The position numbers and the translations under genes are program-made. Shown piece after piece: positions 1,394-38,383 of a stretch of 38,383 nucleotides of DNA (the first letter of the stretch is position 1; every line of letters starts with the position of its first letter). Source of the DNA: a virus (lineage: Duplodnaviria > Heunggongvirae > Uroviricota > Caudoviricetes); the IMG/VR virus record IMGVR_UViG_2711768032_000008, positions 1 through 38,383 of that record, one strand, 5' to 3'. The notes under the pieces were generated by a model, which was not told the origin of the DNA, ran no database searches, and saw only the letters and a list, made by a program, of their open reading frames with translations.

Positions 1394-1461
1394 TTATCAA
1401 CTCTCCTCATTTGTGCTTTATCCGCAACAATGATACATCATTATTCAATATTGAGAACCAT

Positions 1462-29203: not shown

Positions 29204-29235
29204 GTAAGCCCCTTAGAAAGTTCTCATAATTGAAC

Positions 29236-29478
29236 TTACTGGCCAACAATGACGCGGAAGTTGGAATGACCGAGGGATTCACGAACCTGGTCGGTTTTGT
29301 ACATCAGATAACGAAGGCTTACGCGACCTTTGTTTTTTTCCTTCTTGACCATGTATTTAGCAAGCTGACCATGGTGGATCTTTTGGTAAACAGAACCACG
29401 GGAAATACCTTCCCACTCCGCGAACTCTGCGGGCGTAGCCATCTCTTTTGGTACACGAATTGAAATATCAGTACTCAT
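29236..29478 (-). CDS. Apl/Cox-like excisionase/repressor (HTH)
   Basis: 80 aa, divergent from cI; HTH-like segment ISRGSVYQKIHHGQL. Confidence 0.6.
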   Translation of the reverse strand: MSTDISIRVPKEMATPAEFAEWEGISRGSVYQKIHHGQLAKYMVKKEKNKGRVSLRYLMYKTDQVRESLGHSNFRVIVGQ

Positions 29479-29597
29479 AGTGCAGTATCTCTCGATTAAG
29501 GTTTGGTTTACGTCGTTTTATCTTATTTTATTTGATTCAATAATTGATACATCGAGATACTACGATCCAATATTTGATACGTCAACAGGATTGAAAA
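29479..29597. promoter_or_regulatory. Lysis-lysogeny switch region with repeated TTGATAC motifs
   Basis: AT-rich divergent intergenic region between apl/cox and cI; TTGATAC at 29544-29550 and 29574-29580, TTGATTC at 29532-29538. Confidence 0.5.
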
Positions 29598-30230
29598 ATG
29601 ATACACGTGAAAGCGGGCGAGAATACCGGGGGAAGAGAGGCTATCCATAGGCTAATGGCTGCCTACGATTTCAAGTCCAGACAGCAACTGTGCGATCACC
29701 TGGGCGCATCAAAAAGCACTATGGCAAACAGATACTTAAGAGATAGTTTTCCGGCGGAATGGGTGATTCAGTGCGCTCTGGAGACAGGTGTTTCTTTACT
29801 CTGGCTAACAACCGGTCAGGGCGAGCCAAGTTCAAATATTGATTCGAAAAAAAATATCAATTTCGTGAACTCTGGCAAAGTCAAACCCCTTTCTGAGCTT
29901 GTTTCCCCCGAAATTGATAAGGCAACTCTCAACGGTGGCTTATTGGTCGATGCTGGAAAAGCAATCATTGATAGCAGCCTGCTCCCCTCAGACTCAAGCA
30001 ACCTATTGCTGGTGAATACTTCTGGAGATTCTTATTTAGTGGACCGCAGCCAAACACCTCCAGTTAACGGTATGTGGTTGGTAGATATCGACGGAATAAA
30101 AAGCATCGTGAAGTTAACACGGCTACCAGGAAACAGATTGGTGGTCCATCAAGACGAATCATCCTTTGAGTGCAGCCTTGATGATATCGAGGTAGTAGGC
30201 CGCGCTTTAAAAATAATTAAGAGCCTTTGA
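29598..30230 (+). CDS. cI: CI-type immunity repressor (186-like)
   Basis: 210 aa with N-terminal HTH; immediately upstream of int in the same orientation. Confidence 0.75.
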   Translation: MIHVKAGENTGGREAIHRLMAAYDFKSRQQLCDHLGASKSTMANRYLRDSFPAEWVIQCALETGVSLLWLTTGQGEPSSNIDSKKNINFVNSGKVKPLSELVSPEIDKATLNGGLLVDAGKAIIDSSLLPSDSSNLLLVNTSGDSYLVDRSQTPPVNGMWLVDIDGIKSIVKLTRLPGNRLVVHQDESSFECSLDDIEVVGRALKIIKSL

Positions 30231-30231
30231 T

Positions 30232-31251
30232 ATGACCATCAGAAAGCAGCCAAACGGAAAATGGTTGTGTGAATGCTACCCGAACGGGCGCGACGGCAAG
30301 CGTGTGCGCAAACAATTTTCGACAAAAGGCGAGGCCATAGCATTCGAAAACTTCACCATGGATGAAGTGAACAAAAAACCATGGCTAGGGGAAAAGGAAG
30401 ATCGGCGGAATCTGTCAGAAGTGATAGAGCAATGGCACTCACTCTACGGACAAACGCTTGCAGACCCCAAACGCCTGATGGCGAAACTCAACATTATTTG
30501 TAATGGTCTTGGCGATCCCATCGCCTCAGAGTTAACCGCCGGTGATTTTACGAAATACCGCGAAGCGCGGTTAAAAGGTGAAGTGCGAAATGAAGAGGGC
30601 GCACTTATGTCGCCGGTTAAGCCCCGCACGGTAAACCTTGAACAACGCAACCTATCATCGGTTTTTGGCACACTGAAAAAGCTGGGCCACTGGTCAGCGC
30701 CCAATCCGCTCGCCGGATTGCCAACATTTAAAATCGCTGAGGGCGAACTGGCATTCCTGGCCCCGGAAGAAATTAAACGCCTGCTGGATGCCTGCGCTGA
30801 TTCTCAAAGCCCCAGCCTGCTGATGATTGCAAAAATATGCCTGGCCACCGGCGCACGCTGGAGTGAAGCCGAAAACCTGCAGGGCCATCAGTTATCGAAA
30901 TACCGGATCACCTACACAAAGACCAAAGGCAAGAAAAACCGAACCGTGCCAATATCTCAGAAACTGCACGATGAACTCCCCAAAAACAGAGGGAAGCTAT
31001 TCACCCCATGCAGAAAAGCCTTTGAGCGTGCAGTGAAGCGAGCTGGTATCGACCTGCCAGAAGGTCAATGTACTCATGTGCTTCGGCATACATTCGCCAG
31101 TCACTTTATGATGAACGGCGGAAACATACTGGTACTGCGCGATATTCTTGGTCACTCTGATATTAAAATGACAATGGTCTATGCACACTTCGCTCCAGAC
31201 CATTTAGAAGATGCAGTGACGAAAAACCCACTTGCTATGTTGGAAGTTTAA
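30232..31251 (+). CDS. int: Tyrosine integrase (P2/186-type)
   Basis: 339 aa; C-terminal catalytic region with HVLRHTFASH and LGHSDIKMTMVYAH (Tyr). Confidence 0.9.
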   Translation: MTIRKQPNGKWLCECYPNGRDGKRVRKQFSTKGEAIAFENFTMDEVNKKPWLGEKEDRRNLSEVIEQWHSLYGQTLADPKRLMAKLNIICNGLGDPIASELTAGDFTKYREARLKGEVRNEEGALMSPVKPRTVNLEQRNLSSVFGTLKKLGHWSAPNPLAGLPTFKIAEGELAFLAPEEIKRLLDACADSQSPSLLMIAKICLATGARWSEAENLQGHQLSKYRITYTKTKGKKNRTVPISQKLHDELPKNRGKLFTPCRKAFERAVKRAGIDLPEGQCTHVLRHTFASHFMMNGGNILVLRDILGHSDIKMTMVYAHFAPDHLEDAVTKNPLAMLEV

Positions 31252-31252
31252 T

Positions 31253-31783
31253 ATGGACAAAAGCTTAGTAGCTCTTTTTTACTTTTCGTTTTTATTTTTA
31301 AGTTTTTTTGTTTTTATTAAGTATCGACTTTACGAACTCGATCATAGAAGCTTATTCCAGCAACCTCTTTTTTGGGCTGCAATTGCACTCCCCTTACTCA
31401 CTTGTTTTTTCTTAGGCTCATTAGTTTGGATAGATAAAATCCACTCCTTCAGTCTTACAAGTCATGGTTACGAAAGATTTCTTGAAATATCTAAATTGCC
31501 ATTACTGGTTCTAGCTTCATCTGTTCCCCTAGTTTCAATAGTTAATAACCTTCACAGAACGAAACAAACAGAAAAACAAATTTCAGAGGCCGAACAAAAA
31601 AACAGAGTAGATCTATATTATAACCATATGAAATTCAACTTAGATTTGTATAAAAAAATTGAAACAAAAAAAAATTATCAGCTACTACCCTGTAGTGGAT
31701 GCCCACAAAGAAGCTATATATCAGCATTATATCAAACATCCACAAGAGCTTTACAGGAAAGCATACCCTCAATCTACCCCTGA
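31253..31783 (+). CDS. Membrane-anchored hypothetical protein, N-terminal part (frameshifted cargo gene)
   Basis: AT-rich; two or three N-terminal transmembrane helices; frame ends 110 bp after an A9 tract (31666-31674). Confidence 0.5.
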   Translation: MDKSLVALFYFSFLFLSFFVFIKYRLYELDHRSLFQQPLFWAAIALPLLTCFFLGSLVWIDKIHSFSLTSHGYERFLEISKLPLLVLASSVPLVSIVNNLHRTKQTEKQISEAEQKNRVDLYYNHMKFNLDLYKKIETKKNYQLLPCSGCPQRSYISALYQTSTRALQESIPSIYP

Positions 31784-32285
31784 TAATTCACAACAATTGA
31801 AAATCAATGATAACTTTGTTATAGAACTACATAAGTGCTGGATTGAAATTAATGCCAGACTTAAACAATTATCAGAAAGCGAAACTCAACTAGATCCAAC
31901 TCAAGAATTTTGTACTTCAAAGATGAGAATTTTCTTTGGAATAATGAGTATTTATGTAAAGACTTGCAAGCATCTTTGCTTGGGTGGATTTCATGACCAA
32001 AAGTCATTCATTTTGAATGATAATTATGATAAGTATCAAATTTATTCACCGTTCTATGACTTTGGTACAATGTACCAATCTCTGCAATCTCTAGAAGAGA
32101 TCACATTCGCTTTCTTAGATACCTGCAGAAATGAAGAGGTTAATTTATATTTCCCATTGGACGACAAAATTCTGATTTATGGTGAAGGGATTCTACAAAA
32201 TTGGTATGGATACTCTCGATTCTTGATTTCTACCGCCTATCAGCCCGCAAAGATGGTGCGTTTACAACCGCTGATGCGTGAATGA
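31659..32285 (+). CDS. Hypothetical protein, C-terminal part of the same frameshifted cargo gene
   Basis: 208-aa ORF in the +1 frame beginning inside the A9 tract (TTG start in the ORF track); removing one A fuses it to the upstream ORF. Confidence 0.45.
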   Translation: MKQKKIISYYPVVDAHKEAIYQHYIKHPQELYRKAYPQSTPDNSQQLKINDNFVIELHKCWIEINARLKQLSESETQLDPTQEFCTSKMRIFFGIMSIYVKTCKHLCLGGFHDQKSFILNDNYDKYQIYSPFYDFGTMYQSLQSLEEITFAFLDTCRNEEVNLYFPLDDKILIYGEGILQNWYGYSRFLISTAYQPAKMVRLQPLMRE

Positions 32286-32401
32286 AGATGGCGGCATTTT
32301 GGCGGCAGAGCATTAAAAACGAGTAAAACGGACAAATATGGAATAACACTAACATACTGTTTTTAAACACAACTAACTGTTTTCATTATAGTAAAAATGG
32401 T

Positions 32402-32446
32402 ATGTAGGAATTTCGGACGCGGGTTCAACTCCCGCCAGCTCCACCA
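32402..32446 (+). repeat. attR core: displaced copy of the ssrA 3' end (45 bp)
   Basis: Identical to 1016-1060; no tmRNA 5' portion upstream. Confidence 0.85.
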
Positions 32447-33879: not shown

Positions 33880-34296
33880 ATGGAAACCCTATTCAAAGTT
33901 TTTGAAAAATTTAGTTCCAGACCACTTTTTTTTATTTTTTTCGGACTCTCACTTTGTGAATTTTTTCAGAAACAATCTGTTCTGATGAATCCATCAGCAG
34001 ATAACATCGCGAAATTATTCGCAGCCATGATATTAGTTGTTTTTTTTACTTGGGGATTTGAATGGCTAATCTTCAAGTTCAATGTAAACCTTGAACCTCA
34101 TGATCAAGGCGATATTGGACCAACAATTGGAACGGCTACTTTAGCTGTATACTTAGTTTATGCCTTTCACTTTCTCAGTGAAAATCCTGAAGCATTAAAT
34201 TTAAAGTTATTAACTAACTCTGGCTTTATATACAGCACAACTCTATTATTATTCTCATTAGAATGCATGAAGCTTAGAAGACTTAAACAAAAATAA
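33880..34296 (+). CDS. Small hypothetical membrane protein (about 4 TM segments)
   Basis: 138 aa, AT-rich, hydrophobic stretches (LFFIFFGLSL, FAAMILVVFFTWGFEWLIF, TATLAVYLVYAFHFL, FIYSTTLLLFSL). Confidence 0.5.
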   Translation: METLFKVFEKFSSRPLFFIFFGLSLCEFFQKQSVLMNPSADNIAKLFAAMILVVFFTWGFEWLIFKFNVNLEPHDQGDIGPTIGTATLAVYLVYAFHFLSENPEALNLKLLTNSGFIYSTTLLLFSLECMKLRRLKQK

Positions 34297-34367
34297 ACAA
34301 CATCATTGTGATGATAAATATAAAATAGGCATGGCGAAAAAAAATCACCACGCCTAAAATATAATAA

Positions 34368-36134
34368 TTATGGTAGCATCATTGATACATAATCCACACC
34401 AATCCTTGAGCTATACTGAGACGCTATAGCCTGATATCTTTCTGCATAACCAGTTCTCAGTTGAGATTTAAGTTTGAGTCGGACAGGAACATTTTGCACG
34501 TTGCCATCCATATTACTTAAAAACACGGCAGAAATAATATTTTTTTCTTCGCCATCAACTGTTGTTCCATGATTCAACACCACCATATAATCAACAACAG
34601 GAAGCGTTTTATCCCCTTCGAAAATAGAGAGATATTTTCTTTGATTTTTATGCATTACATATATATATTTCGAATGTTCAGCAAATGGCAATGCTTTACT
34701 CTGACTGGCGTTAAAAAGCTCCAGAACTTTAATGAGCCTGTGCGGACTTAATCTTACATGGTGAGGGTCGTTACCCTGAGTAGGAACCAAATCACATGCC
34801 GCAGATACACATAAATACCATTTGTTCGACTCTGTATCAAAGAAAATAGTGCCAGTAGAAATATGACCATCTTCAAAATTCTTTGAAGACAAATTCATAT
34901 TTAAAGCATGATACATTTCGTGATAAGTATCATTATTTGATGGCAGATCCATTTTTGAAGAGCAATATTGGAGCAATGCAGCAACTCCGCTGTTAGCGTA
35001 TTCATTTGAATAGCTATCAAAAACACTTTTGATAAATTCATCCAGCGTATTATTATTTTTAAGTCTTTGATAAAGCTCTTCTGATAAATTACCAAATACA
35101 AAGTCAATATTTCTACATCTAATATCAGGCGAGTCTGATTTTAATATCTCATTTAACCACGCAGCTTGACCGTAATGATCGTTAGCCAAATGATTTACAA
35201 AAGATAAAGCCTCAGCTTCGATTGCATTCTGAATTTCAGATTTTATTAACTGATAATAAGATGGTTTCCATTCAATGAGAGAATCATTGAGAGTTTGCCA
35301 AATCCTATCTCCATCGTTTTCATGATCATCTTGAACCTTATGAAATAGGGAGACAAAGATATTACCACATTGAATCCATTTTACTCCGCTTTCATCACCC
35401 CGAATGACATTGCCAGATGTGTTGCTAGAAATAATTGCATTTCTAGACACAGCATATTCTGCAATCATTTTTGCAATGAAGTTTTTATCCTTTTGATCCT
35501 CCAACACAGCATCATCATGTATTAATCTTTTAATTCTTCTACAAGGCTTACTGTCTTTAATATAGGCTATTGTTTCATCTCTTGTGAGAGCTTTATTACC
35601 ATTATCATTTAAGTTCGGTAATACAACGTCTTCCCAATAACTTTGGACATCTTCATTATCGTAGTCAATGATCAAGCTGTTGATATCCAGAGCACCTTTG
35701 AGAGTCGATGATATCTGCATCCAAACCGTTTCTAAATTCTCTCTAGTATATATTACAATCATATTTAAATGATCGGAGTCTTTCAAATCTTGTAATAGTT
35801 TAAGTGTTTTATCAGGTGCATTATTATCAAGATGATAATCTACAATAATAAGATCTGATTTCCTAATCCGATCCACATCGAAATTAACAGAACCATTGTC
35901 AACATCACAAATCATATTTTTAGATTGAAAAAAGCTCTCAAGAGTAGCGGCTCGTTTAGATGAGTCAATTTTGTTGTAGTCTAAATCAACTTCGTTATTC
36001 AACGCCCTGATTGATTCAGAATACGTCAGAAAATCGTCATCAATCATGACAACGGAACGAATTGCATTTTCGCAGAAAGTTTTCTGGACAAGAGAATTAT
36101 AATTTGCCACTGTCATATTAGAACTCCACTCCAT
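34368..36134 (-). CDS. Receiver (REC)-like domain protein with large uncharacterised C-terminal domain
   Basis: 588 aa; N-terminal VVMIDDD ... DLIIVDYHL ... NMIVIYT resembles a response-regulator receiver fold; the remaining ~450 aa match nothing I recognise; AT-rich; 17-bp overlap with the upstream kinase-like gene. Confidence 0.6.
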   Translation of the reverse strand: MEWSSNMTVANYNSLVQKTFCENAIRSVVMIDDDFLTYSESIRALNNEVDLDYNKIDSSKRAATLESFFQSKNMICDVDNGSVNFDVDRIRKSDLIIVDYHLDNNAPDKTLKLLQDLKDSDHLNMIVIYTRENLETVWMQISSTLKGALDINSLIIDYDNEDVQSYWEDVVLPNLNDNGNKALTRDETIAYIKDSKPCRRIKRLIHDDAVLEDQKDKNFIAKMIAEYAVSRNAIISSNTSGNVIRGDESGVKWIQCGNIFVSLFHKVQDDHENDGDRIWQTLNDSLIEWKPSYYQLIKSEIQNAIEAEALSFVNHLANDHYGQAAWLNEILKSDSPDIRCRNIDFVFGNLSEELYQRLKNNNTLDEFIKSVFDSYSNEYANSGVAALLQYCSSKMDLPSNNDTYHEMYHALNMNLSSKNFEDGHISTGTIFFDTESNKWYLCVSAACDLVPTQGNDPHHVRLSPHRLIKVLELFNASQSKALPFAEHSKYIYVMHKNQRKYLSIFEGDKTLPVVDYMVVLNHGTTVDGEEKNIISAVFLSNMDGNVQNVPVRLKLKSQLRTGYAERYQAIASQYSSRIGVDYVSMMLP

Positions 36135-37836
36135 TGAACTGGATCACAAAATTAGCGCCATCTTTTATTAAATAGTTATCGCCTTCATCAGGTTCTGAAT
36201 ACCATATTTTATGATGTGCAACAGCAAGGTTTTCTCGACATAGATACAGACCTACCCCATGTCCATTTGCTCTTTTGCTATAAAATAGTTCAAATAGTCG
36301 CGGGATATCATCGGTATCAATTGCCGGACCAGAATTTGCTATGATAACCAAAGAATTCACAAAACCAATCTTTATGAGCCTATTATTTGACAGACTGACC
36401 CAATACATTGCATTGTTGATAATATTAGTAAAAACAGGATAGATCCTTGATGGTATATCTGTTATTGCGATTTGCTTAAACTCTTCACTAAATTCAATAG
36501 TTATTCGTTGCCGTTCGAAACGCTCCCCAAAGAACTTCAGGACATAATCCATGATATTTTTTCCAGTTATTCTCTGCCTGGATTGATAACCTGATATTTT
36601 CAAAGGTGATAAGAAACGTATTTGTTGAGTAAGCGATCTGTGAGCATTTAACGCCAATGAAAAACCAGGGTGTTCTTTTACAGAAGTAGGAAGAGAGTTT
36701 AGTCCTCTGGTTACCATAGAATCCATTTCTTCAAGTTCATGAGATGTTATCTCAACACTAATACCTAACTGTGCAAGCGCGTTTAAACTTTTAGCTTTTT
36801 CTTCAAAATATGAGCGTTCTTCTTCAGATAATGAGAATGCTGAATCTAAGTTTATACCTTCAAATAATCTATCGAGACCTTTTATTATTGATTGATATTT
36901 GAAAGTTAGGGTATCAACTGACTCAACATATAAACTATCGAGCAAATTAAACACATTTTCAATTTGTGAATCATTATCTATTGAATCAACAACTGATATA
37001 GTTTTAGCATAATAATCACTTCGATCAACCTTTATTTCATCGGCCCATTTTTTTAAAAGAGAATGTATCTTCTCCTCTATCGTGTTATTAAACTTAGTTA
37101 GTTTAGAATTAATAATACCTTGATTTTTTTCAAGGTGATTTTTCGCTGCCAATGAAGGCTCAAGTTTATTTAATTCAGAATCAAGTTTATTAATTGCTAA
37201 CTTCATTTGTAGAATATACGCAGAGAACTCATTAAATTTATCTCTGTAGTCTCTATATTTCTCTTCATACATTCCAAGTTTTGGAGGTTTGATAGGCGTT
37301 TTAATTTCACTGCGCAACGCATCTAAGTTTGTAAGATCACTGTCTATAATTTTAAGATAGTTTAAATCTAACGAACCATCAGTTTTATCAAGCTTAGTTT
37401 TCAGCCTTTTAACAGCCTCCAAGGAAGCATCAAGAACTGGTGTCTGATTCTTCAAAGCTTCTGAAAAACTTTTTTGTGTTGATTTTCGAGCTTGTTGTTG
37501 AGCAGATTTTCTTAACTCTTTTTCACGCTTAACTTGTTCTAAAAGCTCTTTACGGTCATCAGAACGTGAACCAAAAAATCTATCAGCAAGTTCAGTTAAC
37601 AAATTAGATATAATAGTTTTCAGTTCTCTTGCAGCCTGGTATCTTATGAATCCCTCTCTCCCCGACTTATCTTTCAGCTCTTTATTACTGGATTGAGTAA
37701 TTCCAATATAACCAAAAATCCTTCTATTAGACCAATAATATCGCCCTGCATTCCATGAACGTCTTTCTTCTATCTGGAAGAAATCATTATCTACTCGACC
37801 ATAAGGTAATACTCTCAAGCTATCCCTAAAAATCAT
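36118..37836 (-). CDS. Histidine-kinase-like protein (H-box + HATPase_c), 5'-truncated by IS3
   Basis: C-terminal TSHELEEM (H-box-like), N-box NIINNAMYW, G1 IANSGPAID, G2 GHGVGL; long coiled-coil-rich N-terminal region; frame stays open upstream of the first Met to the IS3 junction (in-frame stop only at 37963-37965, inside the IS). Confidence 0.6.
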   Translation of the reverse strand: MIFRDSLRVLPYGRVDNDFFQIEERRSWNAGRYYWSNRRIFGYIGITQSSNKELKDKSGREGFIRYQAARELKTIISNLLTELADRFFGSRSDDRKELLEQVKREKELRKSAQQQARKSTQKSFSEALKNQTPVLDASLEAVKRLKTKLDKTDGSLDLNYLKIIDSDLTNLDALRSEIKTPIKPPKLGMYEEKYRDYRDKFNEFSAYILQMKLAINKLDSELNKLEPSLAAKNHLEKNQGIINSKLTKFNNTIEEKIHSLLKKWADEIKVDRSDYYAKTISVVDSIDNDSQIENVFNLLDSLYVESVDTLTFKYQSIIKGLDRLFEGINLDSAFSLSEEERSYFEEKAKSLNALAQLGISVEITSHELEEMDSMVTRGLNSLPTSVKEHPGFSLALNAHRSLTQQIRFLSPLKISGYQSRQRITGKNIMDYVLKFFGERFERQRITIEFSEEFKQIAITDIPSRIYPVFTNIINNAMYWVSLSNNRLIKIGFVNSLVIIANSGPAIDTDDIPRLFELFYSKRANGHGVGLYLCRENLAVAHHKIWYSEPDEGDNYLIKDGANFVIQFNGVEF

Positions 37837-37957
37837 TAGTCCTGCATACTTTTTGGCCTTAAGATCAAAGTGGGAATGTTCACGTTCAGTATGTGATGTA
37901 TTTTGTGAAAGGAATTCAAACGTTCCTATCTGAAGCTCAAATGGGCCGACCCCTGCG

Positions 37958-38383
37958 TGATCCTACCCACGTAATATGGACACAGGCCTAAGCGAGGTTC
38001 TTGTTTTCAAATTGTTCCGGACTGAGGCCGCCACACCAACTGTGCCGCCGCCACCGATTGTAATCACATTCGATATAATTAAACACCGTTGCCCGCATTA
38101 TTTCCCGGCTGATAAAGTGTTCTCCATGGATACATTCCACTTTCAGCGAATGAAAGAAGCTTTCCACGCAGGCATTATCGTAGCAGCAACCTTTTGCGCT
38201 CATACTTCCACGCAGATTATGCCGCTTCAGTTGCGCCTGATAATCTGCTGAACAGTACTGGCCTCCACGGTCCGTGTGAACGATAACGTTCCGGGGCCTC
38301 TTACGCCGCCACAGCGCCATCTGCAGGGCATCGCAGGCCAGTTGCGCCGTCATGCGTGGCGACATTGACCAGCCAATAACGGC
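37958..38383 (-). mobile_element. IS3-family insertion sequence, right end (partial, runs off window)
   Basis: Terminal inverted repeat TGATCCTACCCACGTAATATGGACACAGGCCTAAG starting at 37958; contains the 3' part of a transposase gene. Confidence 0.8.
37988..38383 (-). CDS. IS3-family transposase OrfB, C-terminal fragment (5' end outside window)
   Basis: Translation ...[10 protein letters not shown]...[23 protein letters not shown]... is a DDE transposase C-terminus. Confidence 0.85.

Follow-up and report, generated by a model that had tools for sequence, protein, structure and literature searches.

In phage 186, the annotated CI-binding region at the lytic promoter pR covers 57 bp, starting at the cI start codon and ending shortly beyond the pR −10, and contains three CI sites 21 bp apart, a spacing of two turns that places them on one face of the helix. 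A clear TATCTC-N8-GAGATA dyad can be read from the sequence at the centre of the 186 pR spacer, and A-type operators with the layout ATTCAC-N5-GTGAAT lie at FL, FR and pB. The second 186 switch protein, Apl, has seven binding sites between pR and pL, direct repeats that follow each other at intervals of about one helical turn (PMC7498355; seven are also given in the 186 annotation). P2-like switches have their lytic and lysogenic promoters face-to-face (PMC7498355). For the C repressors of P2, WPhi and P2 Hy dis, one published account describes an operator of two direct repeats, the position of which relative to the early promoter varies (PMC1904268). P2-type C proteins have roughly half the length of CI, and no alignment between the two can be made (PMC3448106). 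In a literature search we found no description of operators for the immunity regions of SopEPhi, SEN8 or Fels-2 (Felsduovirus).

Here we analysed a stretch of 38,383 nucleotides (the window), which is the whole of IMG/VR virus record IMGVR_UViG_2711768032_000008. The window carries a Fels-2/SopEPhi-like, that is, P2/186-like prophage of about 31 kb in ssrA (tmRNA gene at 698-1060, tag ANDENYALAA), bounded by at least 44 bp of the ssrA 3′ end (1016-1059) that are repeated at 32402-32445. Its closest phages are SEN8 (90%), Kp4845-2, MLG42 and SopEPhi, with 83–90% DNA identity to the window; a 99.7% identical copy is present in E. coli EC96, and the cI-apl region was matched in 224 of 5,426 complete E. 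coli genomes. As in 186, with which the gene order is shared, int and cI are on one strand and apl and cII on the other. The two genes of the switch are as follows.

29598-30230, plus strand: cI, encoding a 210-aa 186-type immunity repressor
29236-29478, minus strand: apl, encoding an 80-aa excisionase and switch regulator

CI matched Pfam families Phage_CI_repr (E = 5e-31) and Phage_CI_C (E = 8e-29) and the 186 CI structures PDB 2FJR (E = 6.6e-27) and 2FKD (E = 3.9e-13), and it is 32% identical to 186 CI (BLASTP E = 1e-35), with homology in both domains. Apl is 30% identical to 186 Apl (BLASTP E = 4e-13); searches of Pfam and NCBIfam returned no family for Apl, and NCBIfam returned none for CI. 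CII belongs to Pfam Phage_CP76 (E = 1e-43), and integrase domains are present. Between the end of int (31251) and att the DNA is of low GC content (0.32–0.36), with two overlapping open reading frames (31232-31783 and 31659-32285).

The spacer between the apl start (29478, minus strand) and the cI start (29598, plus strand) is exactly 119 bp long (29479-29597). A preliminary description of the window had drawn attention to two exact TTGATAC copies 30 bp apart and a TTGATTC variant in this AT-rich interval, and had proposed them as candidate operator half-sites of a divergent switch. All three motifs are indeed present on the plus strand (TTGATAC at 29544-29550 and 29574-29580, TTGATTC at 29532-29538), and the spacer falls within the lowest-GC 400-bp block of the neighbourhood (0.405). 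The repeat of the 7-mer is not significant by itself, since 47% of dinucleotide-preserving spacer shuffles contain a repeated exact 7-mer. Both copies are, however, enclosed in a longer 20-nt direct repeat (GATTCAATAATTGATACATC at 29534-53 and GATCCAATATTTGATACGTC at 29564-83, identical at 17 of 20 positions), and a repeat of this quality was reached in only 2 of 2,000 such shuffles. A third, gapped copy, GATTGAAAAATGATAC, was found at 29589-29604; it is the sole additional match to GATTNA-N4-6-TGATAC in 38 kb, where 0.05 were expected. In addition, TTGATA/TATCAA occurs six times in the 752 bp of spacer and cI against 0.59 expected (Poisson P = 3.5e-5). The three copies can be written as elements with two half-sites around a short centre.

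29534-29550, unstranded: S1, GATTCA-ATAAT-TGATAC, a 17-bp imperfect dyad that includes the first TTGATAC
29564-29580, unstranded: S2, GATCCA-ATATT-TGATAC, 17 bp, including the second TTGATAC
29589-29604, unstranded: S0, GATTGA-AAAA-TGATAC, with a spacer one base shorter than in S1 and S2

The arms pair at 4 of 6 positions in S1 and, by eye, at 3 of 6 in S2. The distance between centres is 30 bp from S1 to S2 and 24.5 bp from S2 to S0; these last two are not in helical phase. The functional unit predicted from these sequences is a 16–17-bp 6-5-6 element, of which TTGATAC would be the right half. TTGATTC fits differently from the way it was first described: rather than being a variant copy, it overlaps GATTCA, the opposite half-site of S1, and the real third copy (29589-29604) extends outside 29479-29597.

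The position of these elements relative to the promoters was examined in the window and in related loci (19 from genomes, nine phage loci and the best 80 of more than 565 related IMG/VR loci, which are viral contigs). Two promoters were assigned.

29557-29585, minus strand: pR, the predicted lytic promoter, TTGACG (29585-80), a 17-nt spacer and TAGTAT (29562-57), directed toward apl
29459-29488, plus strand: pL, the putative lysogenic promoter, TTGAAA (29459-64), 17 nt and CAGTAT (29483-88)

A consensus promoter scan alone was not significant (3 sites against 2.6 expected), and the evidence for pR combines the consensus match with conservation: pR is kept in 21 of 21 loci from six immunity classes, with its −35 lying 10–14 nt from the cI ATG (14 nt for the annotated pR in 186). 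The location of pL is suggested by positional homology with the annotated pL of 186, as in both phages the apl start codon falls between the two hexamers, 4 nt ahead of the −10. The pL-like element was not flagged by the consensus scan and is invariant across classes, an invariance confounded by apl coding. The genes are divergent, as the preliminary description had it, but by this homology the promoters probably face each other, and about 55 bp would separate their starts; in 186 the pR and pL starts are 62 bp apart.

Relative to pR, S2 fills the 17-nt spacer, its final base being the final base of the −35 hexamer, S1 covers the predicted start (about +1 to +17), and S0 lies between the −35 and the cI start, where it overlaps the Shine–Dalgarno sequence, the ATG and codons 2–3 of cI. 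S0, S2 and S1 together occupy the stretch equivalent to the CI-binding region of 186 and reach about 7 nt further downstream. On this basis, and from the class comparison described below, we propose with a probability of roughly 0.7 that the TTGATAC copies are the right-hand halves of predicted sites for the prophage's own 186-type CI, placed over pR. The comparison with 186-like operator arrangements that the preliminary description had called for is favourable in the position at pR and in the 6-5-6 form, as the 17-bp layout is that of the 186 A-type operators; it departs from 186 in half-site sequence (here GATTCA/GTATCA) and in spacing (30 and 24.5 bp in place of 21 bp). A precedent for a spacing of about three turns exists at 186 pB, where a pair of CI sites lies 32 bp apart. 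Dyad symmetry is weak here, unlike in 186, and CI is longer (210 aa against 192 aa in 186) with a longer linker. The longer linker was considered as the cause of the three-turn spacing and was not supported: locus L026, with a CI of 188 aa, appears by eye to have three related elements about 30 bp apart.

Two further features of the promoter region were observed. An inverted repeat (29483-29496 and 29551-29562; AGTATCTC(TC)GAT and ATCGAGATACT) has as its arms the −10/start regions of the putative pL and of pR, both of which read (C/T)AGTATCTC. The dyad described above for the 186 pR spacer likewise has TATCTC/GAGATA as its arms. A GATC (Dam site, 29564-29567) that adjoins the pR −10 at the left end of the spacer is kept in 20 of 21 loci of all classes; the pR spacer of 186 has none. 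This GATC could represent half of a shared operator or be a feature sensitive to methylation.

The same hexamers invite a promoter reading, in which TTGATA serves as a −35-like sequence (compare TTGACA) of one or two rightward cI promoters lying back to back with pR. The scan did report a plus-strand candidate, TTGATA(29574)-17-AATGAT, matching at 9 of 12 positions, and a second combination read by eye, TTGATA(29544)-18-CAATAT, would place a start about 17 nt upstream of the cI ATG. We nevertheless regard this arrangement as unlikely: the scanned candidate would start inside cI, past the ATG, it comes from a scan with hardly any excess of sites over expectation, other classes lack TTGAYA at this place yet retain pR and the pL-like element, and the 17/20 repeat and the third copy at 29589-604 are left unexplained.

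Within the window's own immunity class (class A), we footprinted 90 loci with 38 distinct spacers. The spacers of SEN8, SopEPhi, MLG42 and Kp4845-2 are those of the window, with the second TTGATAC invariant. Hardly any change is seen in the S2 half-sites among the 38 distinct spacers, and within S1 and S2 variation peaks at the dyad centres (20 and 6 of 38 variants). The TAC of the first TTGATAC is altered in 5–6 of the 38. TTGATTC cannot be counted as a third repeat, because its leading TT varies in 7 of the 38 whereas the GATTCA that follows hardly changes. Conservation within the class did not discriminate overall, the half-sites being no better conserved than the remaining spacer among the 38 distinct sequences (Mann–Whitney P = 0.55). 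Other constraints act too, on S2 as a promoter spacer and on S0 through the Shine–Dalgarno sequence, the ATG and coding.

This lack of contrast is among the points that would suit an origin of the repeat by local duplication, or by chance in AT-rich DNA, without any role in protein binding; so would the frequency of repeated 7-mers in the shuffles and the over-representation of TTGATAC in the window at large (12 copies against 3.7 expected). Such an origin is quite unlikely in our view, given how rarely shuffling yields a 17/20 repeat, the presence of the third gapped copy, the roughly tenfold local enrichment of TTGATA and the dyads at the same positions in other immunity classes. Half of the TTGATAC copies in the window lie to the right of the prophage, at 34000-38383, an AT-rich segment (GC 0.28–0.39) with large minus-strand open reading frames (34368-36134 and 36118-37836) that is probably another horizontally acquired island beside ssrA.

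Next, we compared the spacer across six immunity classes. The invariant parts of the alignment are the apl N-terminus with the pL-like element, the pR −10, the adjoining GATC and the GTCAA of the −35, and the blocks at S1 and S2 are class-specific. In four of the five classes other than A, the best 6-5-6 dyad of the spacer lies at an offset of −29 to −31 or +1 from the centre of the pR spacer, and these offsets are the positions of S1 (−29) and S2. The elements at these positions read as follows.

Class B, positions equivalent to S1/S2: dyad GGTTTG-TTTTT-CAAACC
Fels-2, both putative operator positions: GATCAC-TTTTT-ATATAC and GTTTTG-CTTTT-CAAACC
Locus L021, positions equivalent to S1/S2: dyads ATTCCC-ATTGC-GGGAAT and GATCAC-TTTAA-GTGGTC
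Cartapus, positions equivalent to S1/S2: dyad GATCTT-GATTC-AAGATT

Fels-2 shares Apl, pR and the pL-like element with the window and differs in sequence at both putative operator positions. The proposal that TTGATAC marks operator half-sites is thereby the best supported on comparative grounds, through the location in the pR spacer, the class-specific dyads and the phages that share Apl and lack the motif, with the qualification that the predicted unit is the 16–17-bp element and TTGATAC only its right half.

The phages with shared Apl also bear on whether the repeats could be binding sites of Apl itself. GATAC, GATTC and GATCC form direct repeats at 29534, 29546, 29556, 29564 and 29576, with spacings of 8–12 bp that resemble the one-turn phasing of the 186 Apl sites. 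However, Cartapus, Fels-2 and ST15-OXA48phi14.1 have an identical or nearly identical Apl and spacers without TTGATAC, the DNA ceases to resemble that of Cartapus and RE2010 14 bp past the start of apl, and no GATAC repeat array was seen in the segment that separates the Int arm sites from the int-side att core. What phages with the same Apl share instead are GTTTTAK repeats with a phasing of about 10 bp. The class-specific dyads and the absence of TTGATAC from phages with the same Apl favour CI operators, and binding of the repeats by Apl is very unlikely. The GTTTTAK-type repeats appear to be better candidates for Apl sites, in line with what 186 would lead one to expect.

29506-29531, plus strand: candidate Apl sites, GTTTAC/GTTTTAT/ATTTTAT direct repeats spaced by about 10 bp

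A similar pair, CGTTTTAC-T-CGTTTTTA (about 32315-32335, minus strand), adjoins the GGCGGCA Int arm repeats at the int-side att. Neither GTTTTAT nor CGTTTTAY is more frequent than expected by chance, so it is position and phasing that make 29506-31 a candidate.

A host architectural protein such as IHF, the consensus of which is WATCAANNNNTTR, would be another possible ligand of the sites. On the minus strand, TATCAAATATTGG and TATCAATTATTGA each differ from that consensus by one mismatch as read by us; in both copies, however, the mismatch replaces the required TT by TG, and both positions are class-specific, whereas a host-factor site should not vary with immunity class. We consider this highly improbable. 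With regard to an RNA-level explanation, no Rfam match was obtained at E ≤ 1, and folding z-scores were about zero on both strands.

The CI operators proposed here were also compared with those of the P2 C repressors. In common with P2-type operators, the locus has two direct-repeat units, of 20 nt, which flank the pR −10. It differs in that the units have internal dyad character and that their equivalents in sister classes are often perfect palindromes. The repressor, moreover, is a 210-aa CI with the domains of 186 CI, which sets the locus apart from the P2 C type; the P2 C repressor has about 99 aa. Because dyad symmetry is weak in the window class, a reading of S1 and S2 as head-to-tail GATTC/GATAC repeats in place of dyads is also conceivable.

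Natural CI chimeras occur among the loci compared (L015 to L018): class B repressors pair a Fels-2-like N-terminal domain with a window-like C-terminal domain, and their breakpoint lies in the hypervariable linker, which is 21–55% identical between classes. One of them, L015, joins a Fels-2-like N-terminal domain (88% identity) to a window-like C-terminal domain (73%) and has Fels-2-like dyads, which fits operators that track the DNA-binding domain, although co-variation of the N-terminal domain and the spacer could in part be linkage, as the two are physically linked. The window and Fels-2 classes have one and the same recognition helix and yet different putative operators, so specificity would have to lie elsewhere in the N-terminal domain, for example at residues 36–37 (GA against EV).

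In 50 unique same-class genes, synonymous diversity along cI reaches its minimum at the recognition-helix codons 39–49 (29712-29744, KSTMANRYLRD), and the peptide itself hardly changes from class to class. This codon uniformity may reflect inter-class recombination or a constraint at the nucleic-acid level.

Candidate distal sites, to which pR-bound CI might loop as in 186, were found about 290–345 bp away, in the linker codons of cI and at the apl/cII junction, the places of FL and FR in 186, which flank pR there at a distance of about 300 bp on either side. These, together with an element at the predicted late promoter pB, are listed here.

29854-29870, unstranded: S5, candidate distal FL-like site, ATATCA-ATTTC-GTGAAC, in cI linker codons
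29958-29974, unstranded: S7, second candidate distal site, AAAGCA-ATCAT-TGATAG, by eye identical to S1 at 12 of 17 positions
29829-29845, unstranded: S3, weak candidate, AGTTCA-AATAT-TGATTC, tied for the top half-site match within cI
29220-29236, plus strand: element at the FR/pE position, GTTCTC-ATAAT-TGAACT, at the junction of the apl stop and cII start; GTTCTCATAATTGAAC covers 29220-35
1442-1458, minus strand: pB element, GTTCTC-AATAT-TGAATA, over the −35 of predicted pB (−10 TATCAT), upstream of a B/ogr-like gene

S5 lies 290 bp from the centre of S2 (about 306 bp for FL in 186), and the stretch that holds it, 29847-29870, is among those with the lowest third-codon-position diversity in cI across the 50 unique genes. 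Elements of 6-5-6 form also occur in classes B and D at nt 257–273 of cI, the place of S5, and in three class B loci the best match of cI to the class's own half-site is at nt 263–279. S7 ends in TGATAC in 13 of the 50 unique class A genes; the surrounding 29958-29978, which holds CAATCATTGATAG/C, has low synonymous diversity, with S7 ranking 43rd of 617 among 17-nt windows. S3 was not supported by itself as a clear FL operator: with a position weight matrix built from S1 and S2 only it ranked tenth in the window, about two such hits are expected per 38 kb, and its conservation rank is 545 of 617.

The other two elements have a different character. GTTCTCANNNTTGAA occurs exactly twice in the window, at 1444-1458 (minus strand) and 29220-29234 (plus strand; 12/12 match), and these are positions of A-type CI operators in 186 (pB and FR). 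At pB the layout is also that of 186, in which an A-type operator covers the −35. At 29220-36 the element contains a −10-like hexamer, CATAAT, where 186 has pE. Neither element behaved as an immunity-specific operator: the FR-position element is the same in every class, which sets immunity specificity aside, and the pB element, tried for co-variation with immunity class, does not differ between classes A, C and D. GTTCTCANNNTTGAA may be a class-independent CI site, or it may in part be promoter sequence (the pE −10-like CATAAT). That the repressor uses two kinds of site, class-specific ones at pR that set immunity and a class-independent GTTCTC-N5-TGAAY at the pB −35 and at pE/FR, is a tentative idea that we hold to be possible but doubtful. 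Were the shared element bound by CI of all classes, a superinfecting heteroimmune relative could find its late-gene activation or its establishment of lysogeny damped by a resident prophage, which would amount to partial cross-immunity.

Returning to CI operators at pR as the preferred reading, we suggest that the switch works as in 186. CI dimers, presumably joined through the C-terminal oligomerisation domain, would occupy S0, S1 and S2 and exclude RNA polymerase from pR, and this exclusion would shut off apl, cII and the lytic operon. As pR faces the weak pL, its silencing should in addition lift transcriptional interference from the cI-int transcript. The prophage would then most likely have a heteroimmune but otherwise ordinary member of the well-known 186-type family of switches.

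Together, these results provide predicted operator coordinates for the immunity class of SopEPhi, SEN8 and many prophages of E. coli, Salmonella, Citrobacter and Klebsiella, and leave the general picture of such switches unchanged. The six-class comparison separates the fixed parts of the switch (pR, the pL-like element, GATC and the candidate Apl repeats) from the immunity-specific parts. The pR-region spacing of about three turns (29–32 bp) in all these classes would offer a natural test of the amount of DNA contacted per dimer by the 14-mer wheel of a 186-type CI (PMC3675496). The predicted operators may be of use in forecasting heteroimmunity among Fels-2-like prophages, including the SopE-converting phage, and in adopting 186-type repressors as orthogonal parts.
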